Program-made: the position numbers and the translations under genes
Part shown: positions 9,044-23,900 of the stretch, in pieces
Layout of the letters: every line of letters begins with the position of its first letter
Position numbering within the stretch: the first letter of the stretch is position 1
NCBI GenBank assembly: GCA_016933175.1
Contig: JAFGBK010000107.1
Coordinates: 958 to 64,957 of the forward strand
Reading direction: 5' to 3'
Source: Candidatus Krumholzibacteriota bacterium
Lineage (GTDB): Bacteria; Krumholzibacteriota; Krumholzibacteriia; JACNKJ01
Length of the DNA: 64,000 nt
The notes under the pieces: generated by a model
Database searches by the model: none
Told to the model about the DNA's origin: nothing
Seen by the model: only the letters and a program-made list of their open reading frames with translations

Positions 9044-9964
9044 ATGAAGGCAGCAGCCACGATCAACGCACTGCTTCTGGGCCTCGCCCTCCTGGCGCCC
9101 GCCGCGGGCGCCCAGGACGAGCTGGCGGGCCAGGCCGTCCACCAGATGGAGGTGGTGGGCGAGAGCGAGTTCCGCCTCCAGGTGGAGAAGACCGAGCTGG
9201 ACTTCCACCCCACCGCCATGGATCTCGATGACGGCGCCACGGAGGAGGAGGCCGCCCTGTTCGAGTACGCGCCGCCGGCGAGCTTCCACCCCTACCTCTA
9301 CGACAGCGAGCGGGTGGAATGCCCCCTGGTGCCGAGCTTCGCCGACCGGCCCGTGAGCCGGGCGCCGGTGGTCTCCTTCCGCACGGACTTCAGCGGCAGC
9401 GCCGACGTGGTGCAGTGGAACCTGGACATCACCGACTACCGCGGGGAGGCGTTCCGCAGCATGGAGGGCAAGAAGCGGCCCCCGGATGTCATGCGCTGGG
9501 ACGGCCGCGGCAACCACGGAGAGATCCTCAAGCCCGGCTTCCCCTACTCCTTCCTCTTCACCATCGAGGACTCGGGCACCAACCGCTACCAGTACGCCGG
9601 CAACACCTTCTCGCTGCCCTTCGTCTGCTACCAGGAGGGCAAGAACCTGCGCGTGGAGGCGGCGGCGCACGCCCTGTTCGACAAGGGCCTCTCGCGGCCC
9701 CTGGCGGAAGCGCCCGGCCGGGTGGACCGCATCCTGCGCGAGATCCTCGACTCCCCCCGCCGCGCCGTGCAGGTGGACGCCTGGGCCGAAACCGAGGCCC
9801 TGGCGGCGGCCCGCGCCGCCTGGCTGGCCAAGGCCCTGGAGACGCGCCTGCTCCTGGCCGAGGACCAGGTGGCCAGCGCAGGGTACGCCTACAAGGGCGA
9901 CCCGCCGGGCCGCGACGGCCTGCTGCGCGTGATCCTGCTCAAGGGGGGCAAGAAGGAGGACTAG
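9044..9964 (+). CDS. Exported protein with FlgD-Ig-like module and degenerate OmpA-like C-terminal domain
   Basis: Signal peptide; WNLDITDYRGEAFR...RWDGRGNHGEILKPG (FlgD-like); C-terminal LFDKG...ARAAWLAKAL...GY...RVILL resembles the OmpA/Pal fold but lacks a clear GHTD motif. Confidence 0.55.
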   Translation: MKAAATINALLLGLALLAPAAGAQDELAGQAVHQMEVVGESEFRLQVEKTELDFHPTAMDLDDGATEEEAALFEYAPPASFHPYLYDSERVECPLVPSFADRPVSRAPVVSFRTDFSGSADVVQWNLDITDYRGEAFRSMEGKKRPPDVMRWDGRGNHGEILKPGFPYSFLFTIEDSGTNRYQYAGNTFSLPFVCYQEGKNLRVEAAAHALFDKGLSRPLAEAPGRVDRILREILDSPRRAVQVDAWAETEALAAARAAWLAKALETRLLLAEDQVASAGYAYKGDPPGRDGLLRVILLKGGKKED

Positions 9965-10938
9965 GCCAGGAAGCCCATGGCCTCCCGCACCTCGCCCATG
10001 ACCTCCCGCGCGATGGCGCGGCAGCGTCCGGCCCCGGTCGCCAGGATCTCGCGCACGCGCTCCGGGTTCGCCGCCAGGGCCCGGTAGCGCTCGCGCAGGG
10101 GCGCCAGCTCCCGCTCGATGTGCTCGGCAAGCACACGCTTGCAGTCGATGCAGCCGATGGTGGCGCCGCGGCATCCGCGCGCCAGCTCCTCGCGTGTCTC
10201 GGCGGGCGTGAAGGCCTTGTGGATCGTGAAGATGTTGCAGTCCTCGGGCTCGCCCGGGTCCGAGCGCCGCACGCGCCGCTCGTCGGTGACGGCGGGGCGC
10301 AGCTTGTCCCAGGTCGCCTCGGGCCCGGCCAGGACGGAGACCGTGTTGCCGAGGCTCTTGCTCATCTTGGCCTGGCCATCCAGGCCCAGGATGCGCTTGC
10401 CGGGAGTGAGCAGGGGCCGGGGCTCGGGGAAGATGTCCCCGTAGCGCTTGTTGAAGCGCCGGGCCACCTCGCGGCTGAACTCCAGGTGCTGGATCTGGTC
10501 CTCCCCCACGGGCACCAGCTCGGCCTTGTAGAGCAGGATGTCGGCGGCCTGGAGGACCGGGTAGTCCAGGAGGCCCACGTTGAGGTTCTGCCGGTTGCGG
10601 GCCGCCTTGTCCTTGAACTGGGTCATGCGCTCCAGCTCGCCCAGGGGCGCCACGCAGTTGAAGTACCAGGTCAGCTCGGCGTGCTCGGGCACCGCCGACT
10701 GGACGAAGAGGATGGAGCGCTCGGGGTCGATGCCCGCGGCGAGGAGCGTGATGGCCATGTCCAGGGTGCGCTGCGACAGGGTCGCCGGGTCGAAGGACTC
10801 GGTGACGGCATGGAGGTCCACCACGCAGTAGATGCACTCGTACTCGTCCTGCAGGCGGACCCAGTTCTTGATGGCGCCCGCATAATTGCCCAGGTGGGCC
10901 TCGCCCGAAGGCTGGATGCCGCTGAAGACCCGTTGCAT
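9961..10938 (-). CDS. trpS: Tryptophan--tRNA ligase
   Basis: MQRVFSGIQPSGEAHLGNY (HIGH-like), YPVLQAADIL, VPVGEDQ and KMSKS motifs; ATG at 10938. Confidence 0.98.
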   Translation of the reverse strand: MQRVFSGIQPSGEAHLGNYAGAIKNWVRLQDEYECIYCVVDLHAVTESFDPATLSQRTLDMAITLLAAGIDPERSILFVQSAVPEHAELTWYFNCVAPLGELERMTQFKDKAARNRQNLNVGLLDYPVLQAADILLYKAELVPVGEDQIQHLEFSREVARRFNKRYGDIFPEPRPLLTPGKRILGLDGQAKMSKSLGNTVSVLAGPEATWDKLRPAVTDERRVRRSDPGEPEDCNIFTIHKAFTPAETREELARGCRGATIGCIDCKRVLAEHIERELAPLRERYRALAANPERVREILATGAGRCRAIAREVMGEVREAMGFLA

Positions 10939-11065
10939 GGCCGCCCTCCGCTTCGCGGGCGCCGGGCGGCGGAAGGGATACCGGATCCATCGCCCAGCGC
11001 AATCCATTAGAAAGAAACAAGTTAAGAAAAATAGCCGCGGTCCGGGCAATTCGCGAGCGTCGCTC

Positions 11066-11094
11066 TTGCACCGCTCCGGACCTTGTGCTAGTAT
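11066..11094 (+). promoter_or_regulatory. Sigma70-type promoter with extended -10, driving the candidate sRNA
   Basis: TTGCAC (11066-11071), 17-nt spacer ending TGc, TAGTAT (11089-11094). Confidence 0.7.
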
Positions 11095-11100
11095 TCGAGT

Positions 11101-11227
11101 GTTGCCACGGGGAGCAGGATGCTCTTAAGTGGCGATGTTTTAAAGACTTATACCTGCGCCTTTCTTGTGCTAGGGTATAGGGATTGCTCTCAGGGAAGCG
11201 AGACGGCCCGCGCCGTCTCGTTTCCTT
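11101..11227 (+). ncRNA. Candidate ~125-nt three-hairpin small RNA (Csr/Rsm-like or anti-SD type)
   Basis: Has its own promoter and a 3' terminator hairpin; AT-rich relative to the flanks. Hairpin 11101-11136 has a GGA loop, hairpin 11147-11181 has a CUUUCUU loop. No credible + strand gene follows. Confidence 0.55.
11194..11227 (+). terminator. Intrinsic terminator hairpin of the candidate sRNA; may also serve the convergent etf operon
   Basis: 13-bp stem GGAAGCGAGACGG / CCGTCTCGTTTCC with one G-U pair, 6-nt loop, followed by TT. Confidence 0.65.
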
Positions 11228-11329
11228 GTCTGGAATCGGGGCCGCCGCCGTGCTGCGCGCGGCCCAGGACCCCTCCCGCAAGCCACCTGTCCCGTGCAGC
11301 TTGTGTCAGATGCCTGAAGCAGCTTCGAG

Positions 11330-12304
11330 CTAGGCCAGGAGCTTCTTGAACTCCTCGTCCAGCAGGGGCAGCACCTCCAGCGTGTCCCCCACGATCCCGT
11401 AGTCGGCCACCTTGAAGATGGGCGCCTCGGGATCCTTGTTGACGGCCACGATGGTGCGGCTCGAGCTCATGCCCGCCAGGTGCTGGATAGCCCCCGAGAT
11501 CCCGCAGGCGATGTACAGGACGGGGCTGACGGTCTTGCCCGTCTGGCCCACCTGCTCGGCGTGGGGCCGCCAGCCGGCGTCCACCACGGCGCGGCTGGCG
11601 CCCACGGCGGCGCTCAGGGTCCCGGCCAGCTTCTCGATGAGGGCGAAGTTGGCCGGATCCTTCATGCCCCGGCCGCCCGAGACGATGATGGCCGCCTCGG
11701 TCAGGGGCACCTTGTCGGCGGCGGCCGCGACGGCCTCCCGGACCTCGAGGCGCAGGCGATCGGCGTCGATGGCCGTATCGAGGGGCTGGACCTCGGCGCG
11801 GCGCCCGGCGTCCGCCGCCATGGCCTCGAAGTTGTTGGGCCGCAGGGTGACGATGCCCGGGTTGCCGGCCGGCACCACCGTCTCGAAGGCCTTGCCCGCG
11901 TAGATGGGCCGCTTCCAGCGGACCGTCCCTTCCACCGCCTCGGAGCCGACACAGTCCGGCGCCAGCCCGGCGTCGAGGGCGGCCGCCAGGCGCGCCGACA
12001 GCTCCCGGGTGTGGATGCTGACGGGCATCAGCAGCAGGTCCGCGCCGGTGCCGTCCAGGGCCCGGCGCATCAGGTGGACGTGGACATCGAGGTTGAAATC
12101 GGCGCAGGCCGCGTCGTCGGCCGTCAACACCGCGTCGGCACCGTGGTAGCCGGCGGTCTCGGCCAGTGCGCCGACGCCGCTGCCGATGAGGACGGCCGTC
12201 ACGCGGCCCTCGCCGGCGAGGCGGCGGGCTTCACCCAGGGCTTCCAGGGAGGCCTTGGTCAGGCCCTTGGGACTCGTCTCCAGATACACCCAGATGGCTG
12301 CCAT
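11330..12304 (-). CDS. etfA: Electron transfer flavoprotein subunit alpha
   Basis: [32 protein letters not shown] and [12 protein letters not shown] motifs; ATG at 12304. Confidence 0.97.
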
Positions 12305-20901: not shown

Positions 20902-23900
20902 TATTTCAGCAGCGTCAGCTTGCGCGTCTCGACCTGGCTGTCCACCTGCAGCCGCGCGAAGTAGATGCCGCTCGCGACGGCGCGGGCGCTGTCGTCGCGT
21001 CCCTGCCAGCTCTGGACGTAGGTGCCCGCCGGCAGGGCTTCGTCCACGAGCTTGGCCACGAGCCGGCCGCGAACGTCGTGGATGCTCAGGCGCACGGGCC
21101 GCTGCCCCTCCCCCGTCAGCGTGAAGCGGATGTGGGTCTTCGGATTGAAGGGGTTCGGCCAGTTGCGGTCCAGGCGGACGACGCCCGGCGGTAGGTCCTC
21201 CTCGGCCACGTCGACCACCCAGTCGATGGCGTCGTAGTTGCCGCTGCGCGTGGCGTCGTGCTGGAAGGTGTACCAGGGCGTCGCCGCCGGATCGTAGAGC
21301 ACCGGGAACTCCCAGATGCGGACATACAGGTCCCAGCCGGCGACGATCATGTCCAGCTGCCCGTTCCCGTCGAAGTCGACGAAGGTGGGCGTCGTGCGCA
21401 GGAAGTCGTCGGCGCCCAGGGGGAAGCCGTCCACCGGCGTGCCGTCGTGGTGCCAGGCCTCGATGAGCGCATCCTCATTGGCCACGAAGACCTCGAAGTC
21501 CCCGTCGCCGTCCACGTCGGCCACGGAGGGCGACGCCACGGTGTAGTGGCTCGTCGTGCGCGGCCAGCCCGGCAGCAGGGTGCCATCGGCGTCGAACCAG
21601 GCCACGTCCATGTGCTCGTTGTTGTGGACGCCGCAGACGAAGATCTCCGGGTAGCCGTCGCCGGTCAGGTCGGCCAGGGCGGGGCTGGGCGCCAGGCCCC
21701 AGTTGTTGTTGAACCAGTAGACGGGCCAGCCCGGATGGCGCGAGCCGTCGTGGTCGAGCACGTAGAGGGAGTCGTTCTCCGCCGGGAAGACGATCTCCGG
21801 CAGGCCGTCCCCGTCCACGTCGCCGATGGCGGGGCTGCAGTACATCTCCATGCCGGTGTCAAAGGGGAAGCCGTCCACCAGCGTGCCGTCCGCGTGCCAG
21901 GCGTAGAGATAGCCGGTCATGGAGCAGATGAAGATCTCGTTGGCGCGATCGCCGTCCACGTCGCCGAAGGCGCAGGTGGAGCGCAGCCAGCCGCCGAGCC
22001 CCGTGGCGAAGACGCCCTGGGTCAGCGGGTTGTTGTCGCCATCGATCAGCTCCGTGCCGTCGTGGTGCCAGGCCAGGAGGTGGCCGCCCACGTCGGAGGC
22101 GAAGATCTCCATGTCGCTGTCGCCGTCCACGTCCGCCACGGAGGGCGTACCGTAGATGCCGTAGCTGTGGGCGATGCTGCGCGGCCAGCCCGGCGCCACC
22201 GTGGCCTCGATGCTGATGCCGGTGCCGTTGATCTCCCAGACATAGATCTCGGCCGTGTCCCAGCTGCCGCCGATCAGCTCGACGCCGGCGCGGCCGGGAA
22301 TGACGTTGGCTGCCGTCAGGGAGCAGTTGATGTAGTTATGGCCGTCGGTGATGAGCGGGCCGTGGGTATAGGGATCGCCGTCGCCGTCGGCCAGCTCGGT
22401 GCCATCGGGATGGAACGCGTAGATGACATCGGCGCCCACCAGCAGCTCGTTCCTGCCGTCGCCGGTGAAATCGGCGACGACGGGCGTGCCGGCCGTCCAC
22501 TCGTAGAGACGCTGCGGCCAGCCGAGCAGCTGCGGCACGTTCGTCGTCACCTTGAGCGAGTCCGAGAGCACGCCCGTCAGGCCGGCTGCGGAGAGGGTCT
22601 GGACGCGGTACCAGTACTGCGTGAAGGTGTCCAGCCCCTCGTCCTCGTAGGTGCAGCTCCGCATCCAGTGCGTGGAGATCTCGGCGTAGGGCCCCCCGGC
22701 TTCGGCCGCGCGCAGGACGATGTAGGCGTAGGCGTCTTCGCTGCCGGGCGGCGTCCAGTCGATGATGACGCGGGAGGCGTCCGAGCCGTACTCCGAGCTC
22801 AGCTCCGTGGCCGGTGCCGCGGGGCGCGCCAGGAGCATGGTCAGGCTGTCGCTGTGGCCGAGGCCGTCGGCCAGGACGAGGAGCAGCTCGGGCGGCTCCG
22901 GCCCGCCGCGGCTCACCTCGAAGAGCGCCGGACCGAGGCCCAGGCTGAGGGAATCGAGGTCGCCCAGGACGGCCACGCCCTGTGTCACGGTCAGGCTGCT
23001 GCCCGCCGTCGGCTCGATGGTGGCCGTCACGTCCGGCGCCGTGGCGCGGCCGTAGTTGGCCAGGCTGATGCCGACCGCCGCCGCCTCCCCCTCCTCGAGA
23101 TCGCCGTCGCCGTCGCCCTGGGCCGTGTCGTCCAGCTCGGTGCGGTACAGGGCAAGCAGCGGCGCCGCGGCCTCGAGGTAGAAGTCGTCCTCTGTGGTGA
23201 CCTCCGTGCAGGTGATGGACAGCGTGAAGGGCAGAATGGCGTCGTCCGCCACGTCACCCAGCTGCACGAGGTAGGGATCGCCGCCGTCGCTGGTGTTGCC
23301 CGCGAGGATGGTGCCGTAGGTGTCCGTGGAGTCGAGCACCGTCACGGCCGGATCGGCGCAGCGCAGGACGGCCCCGGTGTTGCTGGCCCAGAAGGTGCCG
23401 TTGTTCTGCAGGGTGATGGTCAGGCGCACGATCTCGCCGCGCTCGGGCACGCCGTTGCCGTTGCCCGCCACCGTACCGTCGGCGACGTCGTCCACGGCCA
23501 CCAGCGCGGCGGAGAGCAGGGGCTCGCCGCTGGGCGCCAGTACGTCCACCGTGCCGTTGACCGGCGTGGCGTCGCGCGCCGTGACCCGGATCTGGTAGCG
23601 TCCCCCGGTCTCGGGATTGGGCGCGAACTCCACCTGCCCGGCCGTGTCGGTGACGCCGCGCAGGTAGTCCTCGTCGCCGCGACGCAGGGTCACCTGGGCC
23701 CCGGGGCGCGGCAGCAGGCTGACGCGGTCCGTGATGGTGACCACCAGCGGGCCGCTGCCCGCCACGTGGGTCGGCGGCGTTTCGATGGCCAGCGAGTCCA
23801 GAAGGGTCCAGTGCAGCCAGTTGCTGGGGTCGGCCAGAAGCGTATGGGAGGTGTGGGCCCAGCGATAGCCGCCGCCTTCCAGCGTCTCCGGCTCGAAGTT

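Follow-up and report, generated by a model that had tools for sequence, protein, structure and literature searches.

We analysed a stretch of 64,000 nucleotides from a Candidatus Krumholzibacteriota bacterium (the window; GenBank assembly GCA_016933175.1, contig JAFGBK010000107.1, positions 958 to 64,957) and found that positions 11101-11229 of its plus strand probably encode a trans-acting, base-pairing small RNA (sRNA) that regulates an unlinked gene for a lysine-rich, putatively histone-like protein. A first-pass annotation of the window had placed a candidate sRNA with CsrA/RsmA-type GGA motifs between the genes trpS and etfA, and had read it as a CsrA sponge or an anti-Shine-Dalgarno sRNA. 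The evidence for the reading proposed here is the co-variation of two unlinked genes, by which the sRNA and its main target could both be named from sequence alone.

That a structured sRNA gene of approximately 125 nt is real we consider very likely, on the basis of its predicted fold and the conservation of that fold. The minimum-energy fold of 11098-11232 (+) consists of exactly the three helices that had been listed in the first-pass annotation: hairpin 1 (11101-11136; outer stem 11101-11108/11129-11136, inner stem 11110-11116/11120-11126, GGA loop at 11117-11119), hairpin 2 (11147-11181; stem 11147-11154/11174-11181, inner stem 11156-11159/11167-11170, with the pyrimidine-rich loop CUUUCUU) and an intrinsic terminator (11191-11229). 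With -66.9 kcal/mol (z = -6.6) this fold was equalled by none of 200 shuffles, whereas the minus strand reached -47.1 kcal/mol (z = -4.0). The plus strand folds better and the G-U pairs therefore favour that strand, in agreement with their earlier reading as a sign of selection at the RNA level. The terminator stem (11191-11207/11212-11228, followed by the tail UUUCCUUGU) had been given as 13 bp; the stem is there, but it has a G+C core of about 9 bp (11199-11207/11212-11220) and extends to 17 bp in full because GGGAAG pairs with the U-tract.

No family of Rfam 15 reaches its gathering score anywhere in the window, and a permissive Rfam scan (E up to 10) of 10850-11450 gave nothing relevant. 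BLAST recovered the element from five other genomes of the same family, each time between etfA and trpS. A covariance model built from the six sequences was then searched in 201 genomes drawn from the phylum: the element occurs in 10 of the 12 family genomes and no true match was found in any other family. Five weak matches in family f2 (L018-L022) were rejected, as on inspection they covered a terminator only. A scan of metagenome contigs yielded 17 stretches, three of them true homologues, of which one was the contig of family genome G010 itself and two were new copies; the RNA is rare in public metagenomes. The resulting homologue set comprises 12 loci (10 family genomes and 2 metagenome contigs), and the order etfA-sRNA-trpS is kept in every one, while the identity of TrpS to that of the window's genome drops to 68-77% outside its own genus. 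By these comparisons the sRNA appears as a new sequence family that is confined to one family of an uncultured lineage. Its G+C content is about 53%, as compared to 71.6% for the genome.

Conservation of structure in relatives had been named as a check of the sRNA candidate, and it was found: in the alignment of the 12 sequences 91.9% of the cells are paired (42-48% in slid controls) and 19 of the 39 base pairs show double-sided changes (2-7 when the partners are slid), values that were matched by none of 500 shuffles. The outer helix of hairpin 1 is paired in 94% of the cells over the homologues and has double-sided changes in 6 of its 10 pairs, while the sequence of its loop, including the GGA, is not conserved. 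The helix of hairpin 2 is 94.7% paired, with double-sided changes in three pairs, and its loop reads GCCUUUC in 7 of the 12 homologues, GCCUUUU in L152, GCCUAUCC in the distant genus g3 and CAUCUCUUCAC in genome G001 (L152 being a metagenome contig). For the terminator helix these values are 93% and 7 of 17 pairs, and the U-rich tail is kept in all homologues.

GGAUUGCUC is the only long block without variation among the 12 homologues. The invariant core can be written as GGAUUGCUC(U/A)C and reads GGAUUGCUCUC at 11181-11191 in the window's genome, where it lies between hairpin 2 and the terminator, whose 5' foot follows at 11192-11198; core and foot together form the predicted target-pairing region GGAUUGCUCUCAGGGAAG (11181-11198, +). 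In the eight closer homologues an 18-nt block, GGUAUAGGGAUUGCUCUC, is invariant, and in G001 the seed carries the variant CUCAC. The mean unpaired probability of the core lies between 0.36 and 0.75, and the modelling thus describes a conserved, largely unpaired seed. Two AGGGA motifs are found here (11179-11183 and 11192-11196, +). The former had been listed as an ANGGA motif and is indeed present, but seems to belong to a functional seed.

The exact complement of the seed, GAGAGCAATCC, was sought in the 12 family genomes. Most matches are coding and represent in-frame ESNP codons, which we consider noise; the non-coding matches fall in leaders, and the main group of these leaders belongs to a gene whose lysine-rich product starts with MAVKKA. 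The apparent enrichment of GAGAGCAATCC over a reversed control (40 versus 1) was discarded as evidence, such that only the leader matches count: the control motif GTGAGCAATCC (VSNP) is equally 'enriched' (48 versus 2), and the reversed control is unfair because the motif coincides with frequent codon strings. More generally, where a motif equals a string of common codons, as do GAG-AGC-AAT-CC (ESNP) and GTG-AGC-AAT-CC (VSNP), a reversed pattern greatly understates chance; the VSNP string occurs in malate/lactate dehydrogenase and in LVIVD-type repeats.

In the window's genome the promoter and leader of the Lys-rich gene are located on contig C135 (about 21462-21554, minus strand), unlinked to the sRNA gene. 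The encoded protein has 84 residues, of which 40 are lysine (48%), and consists of AVKK/AKKK-type repeats. The promoter, TTTACAA-N11-(T/A)TCCGATA, is present in exactly one copy in 11 of the 12 family genomes, and its frequency outside the family is close to background (19 of 196 genomes, mostly with a mismatch). The one family genome without it, G004, is complete and also lacks the sRNA; in G011 (77% complete) the target gene is present and the sRNA was not detected. In each of the 11 leaders a 5'-terminal hairpin is followed by GAGCAAU(C/U)C, at a distance of about 25-35 nt from the AUG downstream. None of the predicted target leaders matches a family in Rfam.

In the window's genome GGAUUGCUCUCAGGGAAG can pair contiguously with CUUCCUUGAGAGCAAUCC over 18 pairs, one of which is G-U, and the predicted site extends from -40 to -23, counted from the AUG. 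An ungapped scan for complements of 11172-11201 over 6.9 million positions, both strands included, ranked this site as the best of the entire genome, except for the antisense strand of the sRNA gene itself; the next best runs have 16 pairs and are mostly G-U-rich. The duplexes between cognate partners have energies of -23 to -40 kcal/mol, with z = -2.1 to -6.9 with respect to shuffled leaders.

The sRNA and its target site change together across genera. In the window's genome (G000), CUCUC-AGGGAAG of the sRNA faces CUUCCUU-GAGAG of the target in a helix of 18 bp; in G003, CUCUC-UGGA faces UCCA-GAGAG (15 bp); in genus g3 (G002, G007, G009) the sRNA reads CUCUC-GGAGAG (G002, G007) or GGAAAG (G009) and the target CCUCUUC-GAGAG (16-19 bp); and in G001 the seed variant CUCAC faces GUGAG (15 bp), an exchange of U-A for A-U. 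The contiguous helix through the core has on average 14.0 pairs for cognate partners and 11.0 for partners from different genera, and when each genus was represented once, the cognate arrangement was equalled by no more than 6-18 of 720 permutations. The pair can be tested directly, as it consists of an 11-nt seed and an 11-nt site for which nature provides compensatory variants.

The following mechanism would account for these observations. The sRNA would be transcribed from a conserved sigma-70-type promoter with an extended -10 and end at its intrinsic terminator, after which GGAUUGCUCUC and the adjoining foot of the terminator would pair with GAGAGCAAUCC and its flank in the 5' leader of the Lys-rich mRNA. 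Hfq (PF17209) was found in none of the 12 family genomes, whereas the control genomes were positive; the sRNA would be Hfq-independent and falls outside the Hfq-dependent class. The duplex would open the 5'-terminal hairpin of the leader, and thereby lower the stability of the mRNA, its translation, or both: the 3' arm of this hairpin is part of the target, and in the models for most genomes binding frees the 5' end. With the site bound, the first 8 nt of the leader go from an unpaired probability of 0.24 to one of 0.97 in the window's genome, and the models for G002, G009 and G008 behave similarly. Hairpins at the 5' end shield bacterial mRNAs from RNases that depend on that end, and long RNA duplexes attract RNase III. 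Given pairing, we therefore somewhat favour repression as the predicted effect on the target, because binding would expose the freed 5' end to RNases and the long duplex would draw RNase III. The biological role would be to hold off a nucleoid-condensing or nucleic-acid-coating protein until it is needed.

In genera g3 and g4 a second contact may be made, in which hairpin 2 would cover, with its loop and 5' arm, the Shine-Dalgarno sequence (SD) and the AUG. In g3 the loop of hairpin 2, UUGCCUAUCC, and GGAUAGGCAA, which immediately precedes the AUG, are perfectly complementary over 10 nt; in g4 the AUG is bridged by pairing with CCAUUG, and GGAGGG is the partner of CCUUUC. The contact between hairpin 2 and the ribosome-binding site (RBS) has z about -3 to -4 in g3, G003 and G010, and is weaker in G006 and G008 (z about -1.7 to -2.2). 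The earlier suggestion of an anti-Shine-Dalgarno action through the CUUUCUU loop thus survives weakly, for the genera with complementarity to the SD-AUG region, but it does not extend to the window's own genome, where the contact is not significant (z about 0).

That last value is one of several points that speak against the proposed regulation. The predicted site lies outside the usual ribosome window (-20 to +19), and blocking the site in the models does not alter the accessibility of the SD consistently. In G006, G008 and G010 no more than 9 bp are contiguous before an internal loop follows, and in G008 and G010 the z of the duplex is only -2.1 to -2.3. Some selection is also involved, because the complement of the seed was the query that led to the target. 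Transcription, ends and strand of the sRNA are deduced from the letters of the genome, and 'histone-H1-like' is a description of the composition of the Lys-rich protein and nothing else, because no family of Pfam or NCBIfam matches it. Finally, the seed contains a GGA, so that an additional contact with CsrA may occur.

A role in CsrA control was the main proposal of the first-pass annotation: an sRNA that sequesters CsrA/RsmA, with GGA motifs that titrate the CsrA dimer off its mRNAs. We consider this improbable, although several observations are in its favour. A search limited to CsrA and Hfq identified CsrA as the sole classical global RNA-binding protein, and the csrA search that had been suggested did recover the gene, in the window's genome and in all 12 family genomes. 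Two GGA at a distance of 11-13 nt, which a single CsrA dimer can bridge, are conserved (GGAUUGCUCUC(N0-2)GGA), and GUAUAGGGAUUG is alike at 9 of 12 positions to RUACARGGAUGU, the CsrA consensus from SELEX (systematic evolution of ligands by exponential enrichment). Yet the presence of csrA does not discriminate, because it occurs in 12/12 family genomes, and its surroundings may point elsewhere: in the window's genome a flgL/flagellin-type gene, fliW (PF02623) and csrA lie in a row (contig C133, 49300-51030; L007), the arrangement in which the protein FliW, and not an sRNA, antagonises CsrA. The motifs are also few, with 2-4 GGA per homologue versus 5-22 in RsmY, RsmZ and CsrB, and with 0-2 A(N)GGA per homologue (none in g3 and G001). 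G003, G005, G010, G001 and L152 lack the sole GGA presented in a loop (11117-11119, in CAGGAUG of hairpin 1). As to the two conserved GGA, the first is part of the base-pairing seed at the base of hairpin 2, and the second is located in the foot of the terminator stem, where it covaries with its partner (A-U to G-C, alignment columns 109/144). The conservation moreover spans UUGCUC, which is needed for the complement of the target and not for the binding of CsrA. Neither the Csr/Rsm covariance models nor any other family in Rfam, the database that had been proposed as a check, matches the RNA. A variant in which the sRNA would mimic the flagellin leader as a CsrA decoy was dropped, as the flagellin leader (L161) bears no obvious likeness to it. 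GGA motifs and hairpins are thus insufficient to call a CsrA sponge.

Two other explanations were weighed against a trans-acting sRNA. A structured RNA with a different job, either protein-binding or acting in cis as an antisense to read-through of etfA/trpS, with the Lys-rich match as a mere by-product, is unlikely in our view, but less so than the CsrA sponge. It would agree with the position between etfA and trpS, which is fixed in all 12 loci, with the weak terminator of etfA on the minus strand, by which antisense overlap is possible, and with a 3' arm of hairpin 2 that is invariant beyond structural need. A fixed position is however common among sRNA genes and does not require a function in cis, and for a by-product one would not expect a top-ranked complement of 18 bp, phyletic co-occurrence and compensatory changes. 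We attach hardly any probability to a gene for a small protein. The ATG at 11119 opens a frame of 76 codons (11119-11349) in which the conserved stretch would be read as GYRDCS, and 7 of the 12 homologues have an open frame that reads (G)YRDCS; but the start codon and the upstream peptide vary in position and frame among the homologues, G008 and G010 have no such open reading frame, and the terminator would fall within the frame. In addition, GGUAUAGGGAUUGCUCUC shows no third-position change in the eight closer homologues and GGAUUGCUC is invariant in 12/12, whereas variation elsewhere tracks base pairs and not codons.

A base-pairing sRNA with its own promoter and terminator had been anticipated insofar as the candidate was described as a stand-alone gene, and the conserved promoter boxes and the covarying terminator helix bear this out; these boxes, the hairpins, the AGGGA motifs and the terminator all lie where they had been placed. 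The promoter consists of a -35-like box TTGCAC (11066-11071, +) and, after a spacer of 17 nt, an extended -10 box TGcTAGTAT (11086-11094, +), from which spacing a transcription start near 11101 is predicted. The description 'near-consensus' proved too generous: the -35 matches the consensus at 3/6 positions and the -10 at 4/6, plus the extended TG, and a consensus promoter scan of the window did not call it. The promoter is nevertheless conserved. CTTGCRC is found at the -35 in six genomes of four genera and also in the more distant genus g3 and in G001; the -10, TGTGCTAGTAT, is invariant in six genomes, and the full pattern CTTGCRC-N17-TGTGCTAGTAT is nearly invariant across the closer genera. 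In g3, the most distant genus, it reads CTTGCGA...TGTTAAAAT, with a different extended -10 at the same place.

Both neighbours of the element are encoded on the minus strand: trpS (tryptophan--tRNA ligase; 9961-10938; NCBIfam TIGR00233, 316 bits) and etfA (electron transfer flavoprotein alpha; 11330-12301; Pfam ETF and ETF_alpha). The element thus stands in divergent orientation to trpS and in convergent orientation to etfA, and downstream of it there is no gene on the plus strand. Termination should be one-directional, because on the minus strand no U-tract follows the terminator hairpin. Just 5' of the -35 of the sRNA a short block, GGGCAATT(C/G)C, is conserved in several genera (window 11040-11060; alignment columns 8-20), which might serve as an UP element or, in common with the divergent promoter of trpS, as a site for a regulator.

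Some other leaders contain potential sites for the seed. In G005, G006, G008 and G010 the leader of a PhzF-family gene has TATACT-N6-GAGAGCAAT(T)CC at its predicted 5' end; in the window's genome a similar promoter and site precede a gene for a secreted CBM48-like protein on contig C128, and the phzF homologue of that genome is internal to an operon that lacks the site. The PhzF-family leader of the relatives and the CBM48-like gene are leads at best, weaker as target candidates than the Lys-rich gene. Between the TATACT promoter and the PhzF-family gene a structure of about 100 nt is conserved (GGGCGCCC...GGCGCCGRCGCCGUGRCGCU...), at 1500-1615 of L175 (G008), at 1500-1620 of L185 (G010) and around 1500 on the minus strand of L164 (G006). 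It begins with the exact complement of the seed, has no match in Rfam, and may represent either a second target or a cis-regulatory RNA that has yet to be described.

A gene for an HU/IHF-like protein was considered as a target and rejected: the 11-mer at its RBS is found only in genus g3 and is lacking in the orthologues of five other genera, and is either genus-specific or due to chance. In g3 the region from SD to AUG reads GGAGAGCAAUCCAUG, the full complement of the seed (L202/L203, 1490-1503; G002 and G007). The HU/IHF-like protein, which has a Lys-rich N-terminal extension, is conserved in nine family genomes; it was not found in the window's genome, which is 92.9% complete.

The promoter of the Lys-rich gene, TTTACAA-N11-TTCCGATAA, has a -10 part that resembles the sigma-28 -10 box GCCGATAA, and GCCGATAA precedes the flagellin gene of the window's genome (L161, about 1412-1432). 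Chlamydial hctB is sigma-28 dependent. The resemblance raises the possibility that the histone-like protein is connected with the motility regulon.

A full-text search on the name of the phylum gave no sRNA study among its top matches, and no Rfam family matches the element. With respect to known sRNAs, the element shares with CsrB, RsmY and RsmZ a length of about 120-130 nt, hairpins and a terminator, some GGA motifs and a csrA gene in the genome; unlike in these sRNAs, the GGA motifs are too few and poorly conserved, none is conserved in a loop, and CsrA appears to be of the type partnered by FliW. RNAIII and RsaE of Staphylococcus and sRNAs of Bacteroides are Hfq-independent base-pairing sRNAs that form long duplexes, and the predicted sRNA resembles them in its own promoter and terminator, a conserved seed that is unpaired or in a loop, pairing to a 5' leader and the lack of Hfq; it differs in that it constitutes a new sequence family and its seed is not a C-rich anti-SD motif.

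The closest parallel by function would be the pair IhtA/HctA of Chlamydia, in which IhtA, an sRNA of three stem-loops, represses the translation of the histone-H1-like protein HctA (Hc1) (PMC4355289, PMC3469542) by means of a G/C-rich loop contact of 6-7 nt that occludes the AUG (PMC4355289). Both sRNAs have three stem-loops, and the family of the window's genome is likewise without Hfq. In both cases the main target (here a predicted one) is an mRNA that encodes a small protein of very basic composition, histone-H1-like in Chlamydia and putatively so here, and a protein that would condense the nucleoid would thus be placed under post-transcriptional control; short Lys-rich repeats as in Hc2 (PMC2848022) are also found in the target predicted here. 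The resemblance seems to be functional only: the sRNAs belong to different phyla and have no relationship by sequence or in Rfam (where the presence of an IhtA model was not confirmed), and the present sRNA would use an 11-nt single-stranded seed, pairing over 14-19 bp in most genomes at about 25-40 nt upstream of the AUG, with a contact to the RBS in some genera only (g3, g4). As a tentative idea, to which we give a rather small chance, the sRNA and the Lys-rich protein could act together as a switch specific to this lineage, by which compaction of the nucleoid or dormancy would be controlled; it would have evolved in parallel to but independently of IhtA/HctA, and two contacts would be made: the seed would unzip the 5' hairpin and hairpin 2 would close the RBS. 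Such a switch might be tied to the motility programme, because the target promoter has a sigma-28-like -10 (CCGATAA). If the proposed pairing is true, it would provide a second and independent case, after Chlamydia IhtA/HctA, of a Lys-rich histone-like protein under the control of an sRNA, and would suggest that such proteins generally need tight post-transcriptional gating.

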